The notes beneath the pieces were generated by a model. That model was not told the DNA's origin. It ran no database searches and worked only from the letters and a program-made list of their open reading frames with translations. This document shows positions 9,106 through 31,696 of a DNA stretch of 32,000 nt, piece by piece (within the stretch, counting starts at the first letter, position 1; every line of letters begins with the position of its first letter). Source of the DNA: Nitrososphaera viennensis EN76 (lineage in GTDB: Archaea > Thermoproteota > Nitrososphaeria > Nitrososphaerales > Nitrososphaeraceae); assembly GCF_000698785.1 (NCBI RefSeq), contig NZ_CP007536.1:2430001-2462000 (forward strand), written 5' to 3'. The translations under genes and the position numbers were made by a program.

Positions 9106-9199
9106 CGGGCCCGTCGGGATTCGAACCCGAGACAACCGGATTTCTTTCTTTTGTAGAAAGTTAAAAGTCCGGTACTCTACCTGGCTGAGCTACGGGCCC
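9106..9199 (-). tRNA. tRNA-Lys (anticodon UUU) with a ~20-nt intron at the canonical 37/38 position; CCA not encoded
   Basis: Hand fold: acceptor GGGCCCG/CGGGCCC, D arm GCTC..GAGT, anticodon stem CCGGA/TCCGG, loop CTTTTAA, intron CTTTCTACAAAAGAAAGAAA, T arm TCGGG-TTCGAAT-CCCGA, discriminator G. Confidence 0.9.
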
Positions 9200-28209: not shown

Positions 28210-28320
28210 GCGGGGGTCGCCAAGCCCGGTCAACGGCGCAGGGCTTAGAATGGGTATGCATTAGCCCCTACAACCCTGTTCCTTAGGGATTCGTGGGTTC
28301 AAATCCCACCCCCCGCACCA
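28210..28320 (+). tRNA. tRNA-Leu (anticodon UAG), type II with long variable arm, ~23-nt intron at 37/38, CCA encoded
   Basis: Hand fold: acceptor GCGGGGG/CCCCCGC, 3-bp D stem GCC/GGC, anticodon stem CAGGG/CCCTG, loop CTTAGAA, intron TGGGTATGCATTAGCCCCTACAA, variable arm TCC-TTAG-GGA, T arm GTGGG-TTCAAAT-CCCAC, discriminator A, CCA. Confidence 0.9.
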
Positions 28321-28371: not shown

Positions 28372-28379
28372 AGCGTAGT
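28372..28379 (+). repeat. Left copy of the 8-bp target-site duplication AGCGTAGT
   Basis: Identical to 31610-31617 and directly abutting the left terminal inverted repeat. Confidence 0.8.
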
Positions 28380-28429
28380 GGTTCTGTTGAATCTTCGGGT
28401 GTTGGAATTGGGTGTTGAATTTTGGGTGG
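28380..28429 (+). repeat. Left terminal inverted repeat (50 bp)
   Basis: GGTTCTGTTGAATCTTCGGGTGTTGGAATTGGGTGTTGAATTTTGGGTGG is the exact reverse complement of 31560-31609. Imperfect similarity continues ~9 bp inward. Confidence 0.9.
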
Positions 28430-28528
28430 CAGGCAACCCCCTCTCCCAAGAGCTCGCTGTTAAATAGCACCTCATAGAAACCCGCATTGTTGAAAAGAAG
28501 ATTCTATACGGCCATAAGTGGTTTAGAT

Positions 28529-29464
28529 ATGAAAATTGACAGATTACAAGTAGGCAACGTAACTTTCGTTAGATCGCATTCACAAATACCTGAAGACACT
28601 CTAGCTCAGAAAGCCTTTAGTAAACTAATGGCAACAACTCCCGATGATCTAAATTTATTCGAATGTATGCTAAAAGACAAATTTACAAAATGTGCGATAG
28701 CTGTTATCGATGTTGAAGCTGATGACGAAAAGACAGCTGAAGAAGTCTCCGAGGATGAGATTGAGAAAGCACTGAATGTTCTGAGATTCTATCTAGCAGG
28801 GTTATCTGAGAACGATCCTTTCTTTTACAAGATGTTCATTGGAATTGAAGGCATAACCAATACTGGACTCACTGCGACCGTAATTATTGATGATGATAAT
28901 CAAAAATTCTTCTTTTCTTCGAGCAGAAAAGGAGCTCATAGAGGGTACGAGCTTGATTCGACCAAGTATCAGAAAATGCTTGACTTTCACTTTGAAAGAG
29001 TGAGTGCGATTCTGGCAACACCTGAAGATTCTAGAAGCCAGATGGAAAATAGCATATTGACATCGATAATATTTTTTGGTTCAGGGATGAATGAGCGTTT
29101 GCTCCGCAATACTTTTGTCAGTTTTGTTATTGCATTAGAATCTTGTCTATTGAGAAGATGTGAGAAAGACAAGTCGGGAAACATTGCCAATGGAATGTGC
29201 GCAATGTTACAGATTAAGCCTGAATATAGGCGAGCTATCCACGAAAAGGTTGAATCGTATTATGATATACGATCAGACATAGTTCATGAAGGTGTAGATA
29301 ATGTTGTAGAAGGAATGGTGTTCGAAATTTGCTATTTGACCTTCAATACAATAATGCGTCTAGTTGCCCATAGTAAGGAAATCAAGGATAAGGATGAATT
29401 GAGAAAGAAGATACGTGAGGAATTAAAAGAAATAAATAGAAAAACCAAGGCCCAATGCACCTAG
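28529..29464 (+). CDS. HEPN-type (RxxxxH) protein with an unknown N-terminal domain; Apea-like/Abi-like putative RNase
   Basis: ATG lies at 28529; the track start 28487 is TTG. The C-terminal helical region is FVSFVIALESCLL...VESYYDIRSDIVHEGV (R-x4-H followed by E-G). The N-terminal ~190 aa are beta-rich with no motif recognised. Confidence 0.6.
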   Translation: MKIDRLQVGNVTFVRSHSQIPEDTLAQKAFSKLMATTPDDLNLFECMLKDKFTKCAIAVIDVEADDEKTAEEVSEDEIEKALNVLRFYLAGLSENDPFFYKMFIGIEGITNTGLTATVIIDDDNQKFFFSSSRKGAHRGYELDSTKYQKMLDFHFERVSAILATPEDSRSQMENSILTSIIFFGSGMNERLLRNTFVSFVIALESCLLRRCEKDKSGNIANGMCAMLQIKPEYRRAIHEKVESYYDIRSDIVHEGVDNVVEGMVFEICYLTFNTIMRLVAHSKEIKDKDELRKKIREELKEINRKTKAQCT

Positions 29465-29481
29465 ATTTCGTCTCCTTTACA

Positions 29482-30639
29482 TCATAAACCGTTTGAACCT
29501 CTCACGGCTCTTCCCAACAGTTCTTTCCATCCATTGACATCTAGACCCGCGACCTGTCCCGGCGTTTTTCCGTCTAGTGCTATATGTGGCTTTACGAAAT
29601 TGTACTGTATTCTCTGCCCGTCAATAATCGGCGTTTCAACCGTCTTTAGGCCACGCAGTACCTTTGTCCTTTCCCGTACAGTGCCATTCATCCTTTCAAT
29701 CCTGTTATTGTTGGCAGTCTTTTTCCGTATGCCGCTCTGTACGCGCTCTGCGTTTGGAAACACCTTCACGCCTGAATGATAGTGCCTTAGCGCGTCAGTA
29801 TGCACCTTCTCAGGCGTTATGCCGTGAGCGTTCTTGGCAGCTTCTTTGAAGGCATCTATTGCAGCAACCACATCTCTTTTCTCGGTCAGCTTTGACGCTA
29901 TCAAAAAGCGCGTTTCCCTGTCCATGATGTTCCAGAGAAAGCCCATGCTGTACCCGTGCTGCATAACATTTCCGTCTCTTGTCCTTATGAAAACCTCGTC
30001 AGCGTGCCATGTCGTTGATAATTGAGGCGCTAGGCTGTTTACGTACTCTGTTATTATCGGGATGTACTTCTGAATCCAAGTGTAGATTGTGGAATAGTTT
30101 ATGTCGATTCTAAAGTGGTCAGACAGGTTGCGTGCAATCTTTCTTAGTGATAGCCCCGAAAAGTACAAGTCCAGAGTCAGGGTTACTAGCTCTGGACTGA
30201 ATTTCGCTTTCTTGAGCAATGATGGCTCGGTGAATTTGTGTTGGCAGTCCTTGCACTTGAAAACCTGTTTGCCGCTTGACTGGCCGTACCTGATTGTACG
30301 GATGGAACCGCAGCGATCGCATGGAATAGCATCTTCCGCAAACACTTTCGGCTTTGGTTCGTCGCGCAGGTACGTCTTTGTGGCTATCATCATGCGTACA
30401 GCGAAAATATGTTTGCAGGCTTCCACCTGTCGGTATTCAAAATCGGGGCAGGTACAGACCCAGCTTTGGCCTATGAGCCTGACTTCATAGCTCATGGAGC
30501 CCATCTGAGAAGGCACCTGAAAGCTCCCGTCTTGGTTTTCGACTATATTCTTGCTATTGCTTTCAAGCAGCTCCAGCCCTCTCTTCATCCGTGCTTGCGA
30601 ATCGTATGCGGATTTTTGTGGTTGCATTAGTATGGTCAT
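29482..30639 (-). CDS. DDE transposase, IS6-family-like, with an N-terminal SWIM zinc finger and zinc ribbon
   Basis: The SWIM finger is WVCTCPDFEYRQVEACKHIF and the ribbon is CDRCGS...FKCKDCQHKF. The DDE region reads WHADEVFIRT...FLWNIMDRETRF...VHTDALRHY...NNRIERMNGTVRERTKVLRGLKT. The start is ambiguous (ATG at 30684, 30639 or 30627). Confidence 0.85.
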   Translation of the reverse strand: MTILMQPQKSAYDSQARMKRGLELLESNSKNIVENQDGSFQVPSQMGSMSYEVRLIGQSWVCTCPDFEYRQVEACKHIFAVRMMIATKTYLRDEPKPKVFAEDAIPCDRCGSIRTIRYGQSSGKQVFKCKDCQHKFTEPSLLKKAKFSPELVTLTLDLYFSGLSLRKIARNLSDHFRIDINYSTIYTWIQKYIPIITEYVNSLAPQLSTTWHADEVFIRTRDGNVMQHGYSMGFLWNIMDRETRFLIASKLTEKRDVVAAIDAFKEAAKNAHGITPEKVHTDALRHYHSGVKVFPNAERVQSGIRKKTANNNRIERMNGTVRERTKVLRGLKTVETPIIDGQRIQYNFVKPHIALDGKTPGQVAGLDVNGWKELLGRAVRGSNGL

Positions 30640-30655
30640 TAGTATTATCATACTA
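30640..30655. repeat. Palindrome TAGTAT-TATC-ATACTA abutting transposase ATG 30639; operator candidate
   Basis: Read directly. The same hexamer recurs at 30628-30633 (TAGTAT) and 30706-30711 (ATACTA) in the region between the divergent transposase and AbrB-like starts. Confidence 0.45.
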
Positions 30656-30721
30656 TGATTAATATAAAGATTATGTTGTATCATAATACATATATTATAG
30701 TCTGCATACTAAGTGCTGTAT

Positions 30722-30925
30722 ATGCCAGTGAAATATACCGTGACTGTTACCTCAGTGGGTAGCAGTTCTGTCATAGTGGTTCCAAAGCCAGTACTGGAAG
30801 GATTTGGCTTGAAAAAGGGCGACAAGGTTGATCTGATTGTACGCGATGACGGCATCTACATTCCGATTGCTCCACAAGACAAGGGCATCGTTGAGCCAAC
30901 AATAAAAGAGGACGAGGTTTCTTGA
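30722..30925 (+). CDS. SpoVT/AbrB-type (MazE-like) DNA-binding protein
   Basis: MPVKYTVTVTSVGSSSVIVVPKPVLEGFGLKKGDKVDLIVRDDGIYI shows the swapped-hairpin AbrB pattern. ATG lies at 30722; the track start 30713 is GTG. Confidence 0.7.
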   Translation: MPVKYTVTVTSVGSSSVIVVPKPVLEGFGLKKGDKVDLIVRDDGIYIPIAPQDKGIVEPTIKEDEVS

Positions 30926-31398
30926 CCGAGGCCAAGCGTGAATATAGAAAGGCTGTCAATTTCGCTACAGTTTACGCAGACGGAGCTATCGTTCATTTCG
31001 GGCTGGATACATGCAGGATCATATTCTATACAGAAGAGATCGAGATCGAGGAAGATGGTTCGGGCATCGCAAATAACAAGAGCGTTGCCTTACTGAAGTA
31101 TGAGGTCGTTTTGCCTAGGAGTATTCTCAAACACATGGCTACAGAAACGTACAAGCTCGGCCAATTAGAACACTATGCGATTAAAATCGAAAGGTCAAAG
31201 CACGACACCGACGAGAGGGTTACGCAAGCATACTGGGAATTTGACAAGGAACTAGGCTCCATCTATTTTGACACCTACAAGGACTTGGCTAATCAGCAGA
31301 TTCGCGGACTAGCTGACAAGTTTAACGATTTGACGGCTATCGCGGGTCTCAGAAAAGAGGATTTAGAATCAGAGGGGAACGCTGATGAAAATGAATGA
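30922..31398 (+). CDS. Hypothetical 158-aa protein translationally coupled to the AbrB-like gene
   Basis: A TTG start overlaps the AbrB-like stop (TTGA). There is no in-frame ATG until residue ~72. No toxin motif (PIN, MazF, RelE, Doc) was recognised. The C-terminus is acidic. Confidence 0.55.
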   Translation: MTEAKREYRKAVNFATVYADGAIVHFGLDTCRIIFYTEEIEIEEDGSGIANNKSVALLKYEVVLPRSILKHMATETYKLGQLEHYAIKIERSKHDTDERVTQAYWEFDKELGSIYFDTYKDLANQQIRGLADKFNDLTAIAGLRKEDLESEGNADENE

Positions 31399-31696
31399 AA
31401 ATAATATCGTACGATGTTCAAGCTGCAACGCGCCTTTAATCTACGAGGAATTGAAAGATCATATCTGTTTTACAAAGAAGCTAGTCGAGGCGCGATTTGA
31501 TACCAATGACAACAAGGTTTACGCATTTGATGGAAAAAGATGGTATCGCTGGTTCCCGCCCACCCAAAATTCAACACCCAATTCCAACACCCGAAGATTC
31601 AACAGAACCAGCGTAGTTGTAGATTCTGCTGCTGTTAGTTCTTTTATTGTGGCAGGTTTACGCATGTTCATGCATAAAGTCGGCTTCTCTTCATGA
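31385..31696 (+). CDS. Small CxxC...HxC protein whose reading frame runs through the right TIR and out of the transposon
   Basis: ATG 31385 overlaps the upstream gene by 14 nt. The N-terminal ~58 aa (RCSSCNAPLIYEELKDHICF...GKRWYRW) look genuine. From ~31555 the frame is encoded by TIR and flank DNA. Confidence 0.4.
   Translation: MKMNENNIVRCSSCNAPLIYEELKDHICFTKKLVEARFDTNDNKVYAFDGKRWYRWFPPTQNSTPNSNTRRFNRTSVVVDSAAVSSFIVAGLRMFMHKVGFSS
31560..31609 (-). repeat. Right terminal inverted repeat (50 bp)
   Basis: The plus strand reads CCACCCAAAATTCAACACCCAATTCCAACACCCGAAGATTCAACAGAACC, the exact reverse complement of 28380-28429. Confidence 0.9.
31610..31617 (+). repeat. Right copy of the 8-bp target-site duplication AGCGTAGT
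   Basis: Identical to 28372-28379 and directly abutting the right TIR. Confidence 0.8.

Follow-up and report, generated by a model that had tools for sequence, protein, structure and literature searches.

Insertion sequences of the IS6/IS26 family are the textbook case of a minimal mobile element, moving other genes only when paired copies flank them. The locus described here raises the question of whether an IS6-type transposase can also carry other genes within its own ends. It lies in the window that we analysed, a 32,000-nucleotide (32-kb) stretch of Nitrososphaera viennensis EN76 (contig NZ_CP007536.1, positions 2,430,001 to 2,462,000 of the forward strand), where bases 28380-31609 form a unit of 3,230 bp holding a transposase gene and four further open reading frames (ORFs). 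We consider it very probable that this unit is an intact transposon of a divergent archaeal branch of the IS6 family, with its passengers inside its own ends: an operon of the genes AbrB, p158 and p103, which would be a toxin-antitoxin (TA)-like self-maintenance module, and an exchangeable gene for a HEPN protein. The evidence comes from the structure of the unit itself and from a family of related archaeal elements.

Boundaries and ends of the unit

The two ends of the unit, 28380-28429 and 31560-31609, are exact reverse complements of each other at 50 of 50 positions, both when the sequence is read directly and in a repeat finder, which lengthens the inverted repeat to 60 nt at 95%. The same octamer directly flanks both ends. 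A 26-nt terminal probe finds exactly two sites in the window, compared with none expected from shuffled sequences. An initial annotation, made from the sequence alone, had described these perfect 50-bp repeats and the flanking octamer beside a tRNA-Leu gene. The repeats are borne out by the direct reading and the repeat finder and the octamer by the direct reading, and the tRNA neighbour is real (Rfam, 42.9 bits). In order along the window, the features of the unit are listed below, with the tRNA given last as context.

28372-28379, no strand: left copy of the target-site duplication, AGCGTAGT (sequence read)
28380-28429, plus strand: terminal inverted repeat at the transposase-distal end, a perfect 50 bp and imperfect out to 28438
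28384-28401, CTGTTGAATCTTCGGGTG, and 28412-28427, TGTTGAATTTTGGGTG, plus strand: two direct 18-20-bp sub-repeats inside the end, within 28384-28427
28529-29464, plus strand: HEPN passenger, 311 aa, with an alternative TTG start at 28487; downstream of the transposase and convergent with it
29482-30627, minus strand: transposase, 381 aa (Pfam, NCBIfam, tblastn); the NCBI call is 368 aa with its start at 30588
30628-30721, no strand: AT-rich intergenic stretch separating the transposase gene from the divergent AbrB operon (sequence read)
30722-30925, plus strand: AbrB/MazE-fold DNA-binding protein, 67 aa, first gene of the accessory operon
30922-31398, plus strand: p158, 158 aa, with a 4-nt overlap with the AbrB stop codon
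31385-31696, plus strand: p103, a CxxC...HxC zinc ribbon of 103 aa, overlapping p158 by 14 nt and missing from the reference gene calls
31560-31609, minus strand: terminal inverted repeat at the transposase-proximal (accessory-operon) end (sequence read, repeat finder, probe)
31610-31617, no strand: right copy of the target-site duplication, AGCGTAGT (sequence read)
28210-28317, plus strand: neighbouring tRNA-Leu(UAG) with intron, outside the element (Rfam RF00005, 42.9 bits)

Just outside the inverted repeat a T/A pair is also complementary, which makes for a small ambiguity in the boundary. We favour the 8-bp duplication because it is the sole reading that fits the relatives described below, and on this reading the reconstructed empty site is ...CTACAAATACA-AGCGTAGT-TGTAGATTCTG... 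The GC content is 38-50% within the element compared with 55-60% in the flanking host genes.

The tip of the element, GGTTCTGTTGAATC, matches the IS26 repeat GGCACTGTTGCAAA (as quoted in the initial annotation) at 9 of 14 positions, so that this earlier count holds. The GG tip and CTGTT are both present, while GAATC stands in place of the caaa motif, which is absent, and the repeat is 50 bp long. The two direct sub-repeats of the left end have mirror copies at 31588-31605 and 31562-31577 in the right end. The same layout recurs among related elements, where the family end consensus is GGTTCTGTTcc.TcttcgGgtg.tt and each end consists of a GGTTCTGTT tip and two direct copies of an 18-20-bp motif, even when the sequence of that motif differs. 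This two-site layout is kept in 32 delimited elements, including those with diverged sequences (for example L024, L036, L028 and L072; L numbers denote loci of the family scan described below). We take the sub-repeats to be paired, putative transposase-binding sites. Two of them per end, together with the extra zinc modules of the transposase, suggest a larger synaptic complex than that of IS26.

The transposase and its archaeal relatives

The transposase contains, in order, a SWIM-like CxCx(n)CxH module, a four-cysteine zinc ribbon, an HTH (helix-turn-helix) and an IS6/IS240-type DDE domain. The motifs WHADEVF, HTDALRHY and NNNRIERMNGTVRER, on which the IS6-type assignment of the initial annotation had been based, are all present in the minus-strand ORF at 29482-30684. 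Pfam matches the catalytic domain to DDE_Tnp_IS240 (PF13610) with 48.3 bits against a cut-off of 27 (E 1.5e-12), and the N-terminal third gives SWIM and zinc-ribbon matches, both weak. The top NCBIfam model is IS6 (NF033587) at 107.2 bits, under the equivalog cut-off of 125 bits, and IS1 reaches 57 bits. In a tblastn search against plasmids, the best-ranked matches listed carry, almost without exception, the annotation IS6 family transposase (E down to 9e-22), with 25-32% identity over residues 138-365. We collected 856 transposase homologues of about 365-390 aa, and across 22 of them the Cys/His columns of the SWIM and zinc-ribbon modules and the residues D210, D278 and E311 are invariant or nearly so. 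Classification by hidden Markov models thus agrees with the earlier IS6 assignment as far as the domain goes, with Pfam IS240 above cut-off and IS6 the best NCBIfam model. The assignment has to be qualified in that this is a long form scoring below the NCBI equivalog cut-off (107 vs 125) and that its ends are bipartite and 50 bp long rather than 14-20 bp. The transposase is very probably a long-form member of a divergent IS6 branch found in archaea.

Members of the IS6 family are typically 0.7-0.9 kb long, with a maximum of 1.76 kb, and have one ORF and terminal repeats of 15-20 bp; their hallmarks are 8-bp direct target repeats, a GG tip and the motifs cTGTt and caaa (PMC7986276). Long zinc-finger forms are described only in clades h and i, and Thaumarchaeota are not mentioned; the sole listed member that carries a passenger, a form termed tIS, is ISDsp3 of Dehalococcoides, with one hypothetical gene (PMC7986276). 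A survey of thaumarchaeal mobile elements describes insertion sequences with one or two genes (PMC6563490). The simple organisation of 0.7-0.9 kb and a lone transposase ORF is not that of the present unit, with its 3,230 bp and five ORFs. Like ISDsp3, the unit has non-transposase genes inside IS6-type ends, four in this case, and relatives with perfect duplications likewise carry such genes.

These relatives were obtained in a family scan that used one genome per species and gave 79 loci, most of them in Nitrososphaerales and others in Bathyarchaeia, Thermoplasmatota, Methanobacteriota, Micrarchaeota and Woesearchaeota. Some of their element boundaries are approximate, and their ORF calls are mechanical. 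The 79 loci have in common the end motif GGTTCTGTT...GGGTGTT, which is found on both sides of the transposase. The repeat pair of each locus was picked by repeat identity alone and the flanks were inspected only afterwards, which avoids circularity. Candidate ends were identified in 67 related loci; 26 of these had a perfect 8/8 flanking duplication, whereas none of 66 reached 6/8 for control 8-mers taken 10 bp further out. The 26 units with perfect duplications range from 2,093 to 4,797 bp.

Among 39 delimited elements there is no transposase-only member. At least about 0.85 kb always separates one end from the intact transposase gene, while the other side measures from 37 bp to 2.3 kb. In 35 of the 39 a small ORF (45-140 aa) on the opposite strand starts within about 330 bp of the transposase and, where its family can be recognised, encodes a DNA-binding protein of varying fold: AbrB/MazE, ribbon-helix-helix (RHH), HxlR-type winged HTH or zinc ribbon. 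Matches above cut-off in this regulator slot include RHH_10 in L102 and an HxlR-type winged helix in L035. The shared plan therefore runs from one end through a variable module, led by the small DNA-binding gene and transcribed away from the transposase, to the transposase itself, an optional passenger and the other end.

This comparison bears on the simplest alternative, in which an ordinary short IS6-like element happens to sit beside unrelated host genes and the outer repeats and octamer come from a second partial copy or from chance. As this account would have it, we found the element at only one place in the genome and obtained no empty site. It would have to produce repeats that match at 50 of 50 positions and a duplication that matches at 8 of 8, with no inner set of ends adjoining the transposase. 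It would also have to accommodate 26 relatives with the same multi-gene layout and perfect duplications against 0 of 66 controls, and a full sister copy with the same operon at an unrelated site (L107). We therefore rejected a chance or composite origin, which the perfect repeats and duplication together with the relatives effectively refute; its probability is very small indeed. The same relatives show that the 50-bp repeat is not a free-standing genomic repeat, a doubt raised in the initial annotation, as their same-motif ends bracket the same kind of transposase with perfect 8-bp duplications.

A second alternative accepts the unit and disputes its family. The elements would then be distinct from IS6, the founder of a new archaeal transposon family, and their IS6 features would reflect common DDE ancestry. 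In its favour are the NCBIfam score below the IS6 equivalog cut-off, an identity of only 25-32% (residues 138-365) to transposases annotated as IS6 and SWIM-like and zinc-ribbon modules that are common to the IS1, IS1595 and IS256 models, together with bipartite ends of 50-60 bp, obligatory extra genes and neighbouring elements that abut with an exact 8-bp spacer. On the other side, Pfam IS240 is above its cut-off, and IS6 leads the NCBIfam models by far, its 107 bits comparing with 57 for IS1. The 8-bp duplication and a GG...CTGTT tip are exactly the hallmarks listed for the family, and the long zinc-finger clades h and i are already placed inside IS6 (PMC7986276). We regard a separate family as unlikely.

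Placed within IS6, the clade shares with IS6/IS26, and with clades h and i in particular, the IS240-type DDE core, the HTH, the 8-bp duplication and the GG tip with CTGTT. It also shares with clades h and i an N-terminal zinc-finger extension, to which, unlike them, it adds the SWIM-like module. It differs from IS6/IS26 in the size of the element (3.2 kb here, 2.1-4.8 kb in the clade), in having five genes rather than one, in ends of 50-60 bp with two internal direct sub-repeats, and in its hosts, which are Nitrososphaerota and other archaea that do not feature among the IS6 elements of PMC7986276. Unlike ISDsp3, a lone bacterial case, a whole archaeal clade here carries passengers, with a conserved slot layout and a regulator gene. 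In chemistry and hallmarks the clade is IS6-like; what sets it apart is its size, the structure of its ends, its obligatory passengers and the range of its hosts. We found no description of the clade or of its architecture in the searchable literature, a search that did not cover ISfinder, and it is apparently a large, uncatalogued archaeal branch of the IS6 family.

The accessory operon and the HEPN passenger

The AbrB gene is divergent from the transposase gene, and we presume that the region between them (30628-30721) is a shared promoter/operator region. AbrB matches Pfam PF04014 with 38.7 bits (cut-off 24.7) and TIGR01439 with 32.3 bits (cut-off 28.3). The gene order is that of a TA system, with a small DNA-binding gene first and an overlapping partner downstream (by 4 nt), followed by the 14-nt overlap of p158 and p103. 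Neither p158 nor p103 has a match in Pfam, NCBIfam or PADLOC, and none of the four passengers of the N. viennensis element has a PADLOC match. The AlphaFold2 (AF2) model of p158 (predicted local distance difference test, pLDDT, 89) consists of a three-strand beta meander and four helices, and has no fold match in the Protein Data Bank (PDB). A word-index search with p158 returned only p158 itself, and a full phmmer search returned 40 cluster representatives. All of the small p158 homologues whose context was examined adjoin a DDE_Tnp_IS240 gene.

One larger protein in the p158 searches, P0143 (L106 1-3012, 1,003 aa, with Ig-like repeats), matches the beta-meander region of p158 in nine stretches with E 1e-10. 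The likeness stems from a small beta module common to both proteins or else from a similar composition. We regard it as a resemblance between beta repeats and did not count P0143, whose surface-protein context is unrelated, as a relative of p158.

Complete cassettes of AbrB/MazE, p158 and p103-type genes occur in the window and in L059, L105 and L107/L108, and their p103-type zinc-ribbon genes share a DGKxWYRW motif. More widely, p103-family genes with this motif stand at the same position in L059, L046, L004, L045, L105 and L107. In L018 a p158-family ORF lies upstream of the transposase and was the only ORF checked there. The p103 gene is itself tied to the end of the element: residues 1-58 are element-specific, the inverted repeat encodes residues 59-75, and the host flank supplies the final 28. 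In at least six relatives the C-terminal tail of the p103-type protein is likewise translated from the terminal repeat and stops a few codons into host DNA. The C-terminus of p103 therefore differs at each insertion site, as the tail runs into whatever host DNA follows.

One of these relatives is L107, a complete element of 2,700 bp with a perfect duplication (AAATTTTT), which lies near phosphate-transport genes at an unrelated site and lacks the HEPN gene. Its transposase is 54% identical to that in the window and its p158 is 24% identical. The operon is not incidental cargo, because it is inherited with the transposase down to this level of p158 identity. It can nevertheless be replaced. In L102, whose transposase is 89% identical in protein and 84% in DNA, the space between the end and the transposase start holds unrelated genes for an RHH protein, a 164-aa protein and a 92-aa protein.

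Both observations bear on another account of the operon, in which its genes are transposition machinery rather than an addiction module. AbrB would repress the transposase, and p158 and the zinc ribbon would be cofactors in end binding, target choice or copy number, which likens them to TnpR of Tn3, IstB of IS21 and InsA of IS1. The co-divergence of operon and transposase, with p158 down to 24% at a transposase identity of 54%, fits such a role, as do the confinement of all examined small p158 homologues to this element type, a third operon gene that always reads into the terminal repeat, and the presence, in 35 of 39 elements, of a small gene for a DNA-binding protein that is divergent from the transposase gene. 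It sits poorly with L102, where the whole operon has been swapped for unrelated genes beside a transposase 89% identical, and with the restriction-modification, ParB-DUF488 or protease-like genes that the same slot holds elsewhere. As the slot genes are replaced in relatives, p158 and p103 are not needed for transposition by this transposase family. We consider a machinery role possible, though rather unlikely. We favour a self-maintenance role because of the way the genes are ordered and overlap, the antitoxin-type folds that can stand in for one another, the rapid divergence, and the restriction-modification and other addictive or defensive modules found in the slot elsewhere.

The passenger on the other side of the transposase is of a different kind. 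The 311-aa protein, named "HEPN domain-containing protein" by NCBI, has an N-terminal alpha/beta domain of no assigned family and a probable C-terminal HEPN domain, in which the R-x4-H motif (RSDIVHEG; R248, H253) is invariant across 10 homologues. It has no match in Pfam, HEPN family included, or in PADLOC. The AF2 model has a pLDDT of 84, and its highest-probability Foldseek match is the HEPN protein 2hsb (probability 0.80, TMt 0.61), albeit with an E of 1.6; Csm6 chains are also listed. At 38-40% the GC content of the gene is the lowest in the element, compared with 46-50% for the transposase and 55-60% for the host flanks, which is consistent with a separate origin of this passenger. A homologue is absent from all delimited relatives. 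L092 encodes P0123, a protein 76% identical to the HEPN passenger. Its neighbours there are an end of the family type and a piece from the 3' part of the transposase gene (residues 299-379), and DNA identity to window positions 28451-29665 is 75%. Because end, HEPN gene and transposase fragment occur together, we read L092 as a decayed sister element with the HEPN gene in the same place. Judged by these sequence comparisons, the HEPN gene is best described as a truly variable passenger of the element.

The initial annotation had treated all four genes as the cargo of an unusual IS6 unit, mobilised as one piece. Movement in one piece agrees with the family comparison, in which whole multi-gene units move. 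For the HEPN gene the term passenger also stands, while the AbrB operon turns out not to be incidental: at least four complete, diverged relatives inherited it together with their transposase, and L018 shows a partial trace of it. The extra genes are indeed present, and rather than an oddity of this unit they are the rule in the clade.

From these parts a mechanism can be proposed. The transposase would bind the two sub-repeats of each end, pair the ends and cut the target with an 8-bp stagger. Copy-in replicon fusion as in IS6/IS26 would most likely follow, with host recombination then yielding the simple insertion, and everything between the ends would travel along. AbrB would most likely control the shared divergent promoter, and AbrB, p158 and the zinc-ribbon protein would most likely form a TA-like self-maintenance module that the lineage has kept with its transposase. 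The HEPN gene would be a later, exchangeable passenger, probably encoding an RNase-type toxin or a defence effector.

Several points weigh against this reading. As regards the family, the IS6 score lies under the equivalog cut-off, the 50-bp bipartite ends compare with 14-20 bp in IS6, and the unit is about four times the usual IS6 length. The copy-in pathway would be an extrapolation from bacterial IS26-type elements. As regards mobility, the transposase matches, with 100% identity, an N. viennensis protein encoded on a 2.53-Mb contig, and exact-protein look-ups with several start codons give a single genomic place for the element; exact-sequence look-ups found no second copy. No empty site was found among contigs encoding the identical neighbouring phosphoglucomutase, each of which either carries the element or breaks off at the tRNA, at the edge of the element or within it, and no circle junction or cointegrate turned up. 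The case for mobility of the N. viennensis copy is for these reasons built on its structure and its relatives. As regards the operon, p158 has no sequence or fold similarity to any known toxin, a third gene is atypical for type II TA pairs, and a direct part in transposition would likewise be compatible with its long co-divergence with the transposase.

Exchangeable cargo and neighbouring copies

How freely the modules are exchanged is best seen in pairs of elements from one genome. L019 and L020 are 90% identical in DNA across the transposase and their flanking modules are unrelated; L066 and L068 have ends that are 94% identical and unrelated cargo. The cargo of L068 is a 957-aa fused N6-methylase/specificity/HsdR-N protein, and that of L066 is a ParB_N and DUF488 pair that matches PADLOC candidate systems. 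In L070 an N6_N4 methylase is fused to Mrr_cat, and L072 gives a weak, sub-threshold match to DUF4145. Protease homologues of a proteasome-like or ClpP/SDH type occur in L027 (4904-5737), L033 (4761-5762), L009 (4766-5710) and L022 (516-1505). Many cargo proteins in the relatives are without a family match. In the upstream slot of several relatives, such a protease homologue is found together with a small gene of the AbrB/MazE type, an unusual combination of regulator and protease for a transposon to carry.

A comparable arrangement is known from the Tn3 family, in which TA pairs are embedded in the transposition module (PMC7157771). Both are DDE transposons that replicate in transposing (for the present clade, presumably so), both have an antitoxin-fold gene and a partner adjoining the transposase gene and its promoter region, and in both the module types are interchangeable among close relatives. 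They differ in the transposase family, the ends, the duplication (5 bp in Tn3) and the resolvase and res site that Tn3 has. The Tn3 toxins belong to recognisable families, unlike p158 and p103, which have no family match, and p158 in addition no PDB fold match.

In six loci a second family element abuts the first (L103 4628/4637, L003 7573/7582, L005 4501/4510, L014 8053/8062, L068 7466/7475 and L027 4814/4824). The spacer is exactly one 8-bp duplication, giving the order end, 8 bp, end, in five of the six pairs, and 9 bp in the sixth. In L103 the 8-mer CTAATCAC of the spacer is also found at the far side of the first element. A stricter scan, run automatically, picked up three of these six pairs and gave no other spacer length in the range of 1-30 bp. 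The pattern suggests that insertion is targeted to the ends of resident copies. The translocatable unit of IS26 inserts preferentially beside another IS26, according to the account of Harmer et al. 2014 in PMC7986276, and the archaeal relatives similarly sit, repeatedly, directly beside another family member. The archaeal pairs are separated by an exact 8-bp duplication, whereas IS26 units share a copy. Such end-to-end abutting was not seen for the N. viennensis copy.

The abutting element of L068 (7475-7540) has the tip GGCACTGTT, which equals the first nine bases of the IS26 repeat, and sub-repeats TTCGGTTCATGAG and GTCGGGTCATGAA that resemble those of the archaeal clade. It may link IS26-type ends and archaeal-clade ends.

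Taken at its widest, the clade might be a new class of archaeal transposons that are dedicated carriers. Each would combine a long transposase of IS6-like type with a pair of binding sites in either end and a regulator whose fold can be exchanged, and its one or two slots would in every case be filled by modules of addiction or defence type. The operon would be a new three-part TA or transposition-control system with a new fold, and homing to resident ends would build the end-8 bp-end arrays. We put this forward tentatively, as an extension that we would not yet call probable.

In this comparison a widespread archaeal branch reverses the minimal IS6 plan. Its 39 delimited members, which come from ammonia-oxidising archaea, Bathyarchaeia, Thermoplasmatota and lineages related to methanogens, each hold a regulator and variable modules inside their ends. 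HEPN, protease-like, ParB-DUF488 and restriction-modification genes are all found inside the clade, which makes it a delimitable vehicle by which defence and toxin genes can be exchanged among archaea, a group in which little is known of such vehicles. The perfect 8-bp duplications supply exact boundaries for mining new conflict systems, and p158 and p103 represent a small-protein family tied to the transposase, with no match to a known fold or function.

Two tRNA genes of the window deserve a short comment. The gene at 28210-28317, which ARAGORN fails to call, is assigned to tRNA-Leu(UAG) because its loop reads CU-UAG-AA (CUUAGAA) and is followed by an intron and a long variable arm. We considered this gene as the integration target and rejected it: the element starts 62 bp past the tRNA and not within it, the gene is intact, and the relatives are inserted at unrelated sites. 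Its closeness to the element looks incidental. Further away, at 9106-9199 on the minus strand, ARAGORN labels a gene "tRNA-Stop (tta)" that Rfam scores as tRNA with 59.4 bits. Because its anticodon loop reads CU-UUU-AA and is then followed by an intron, the gene most likely encodes tRNA-Lys(UUU), interrupted by an intron, rather than a suppressor.

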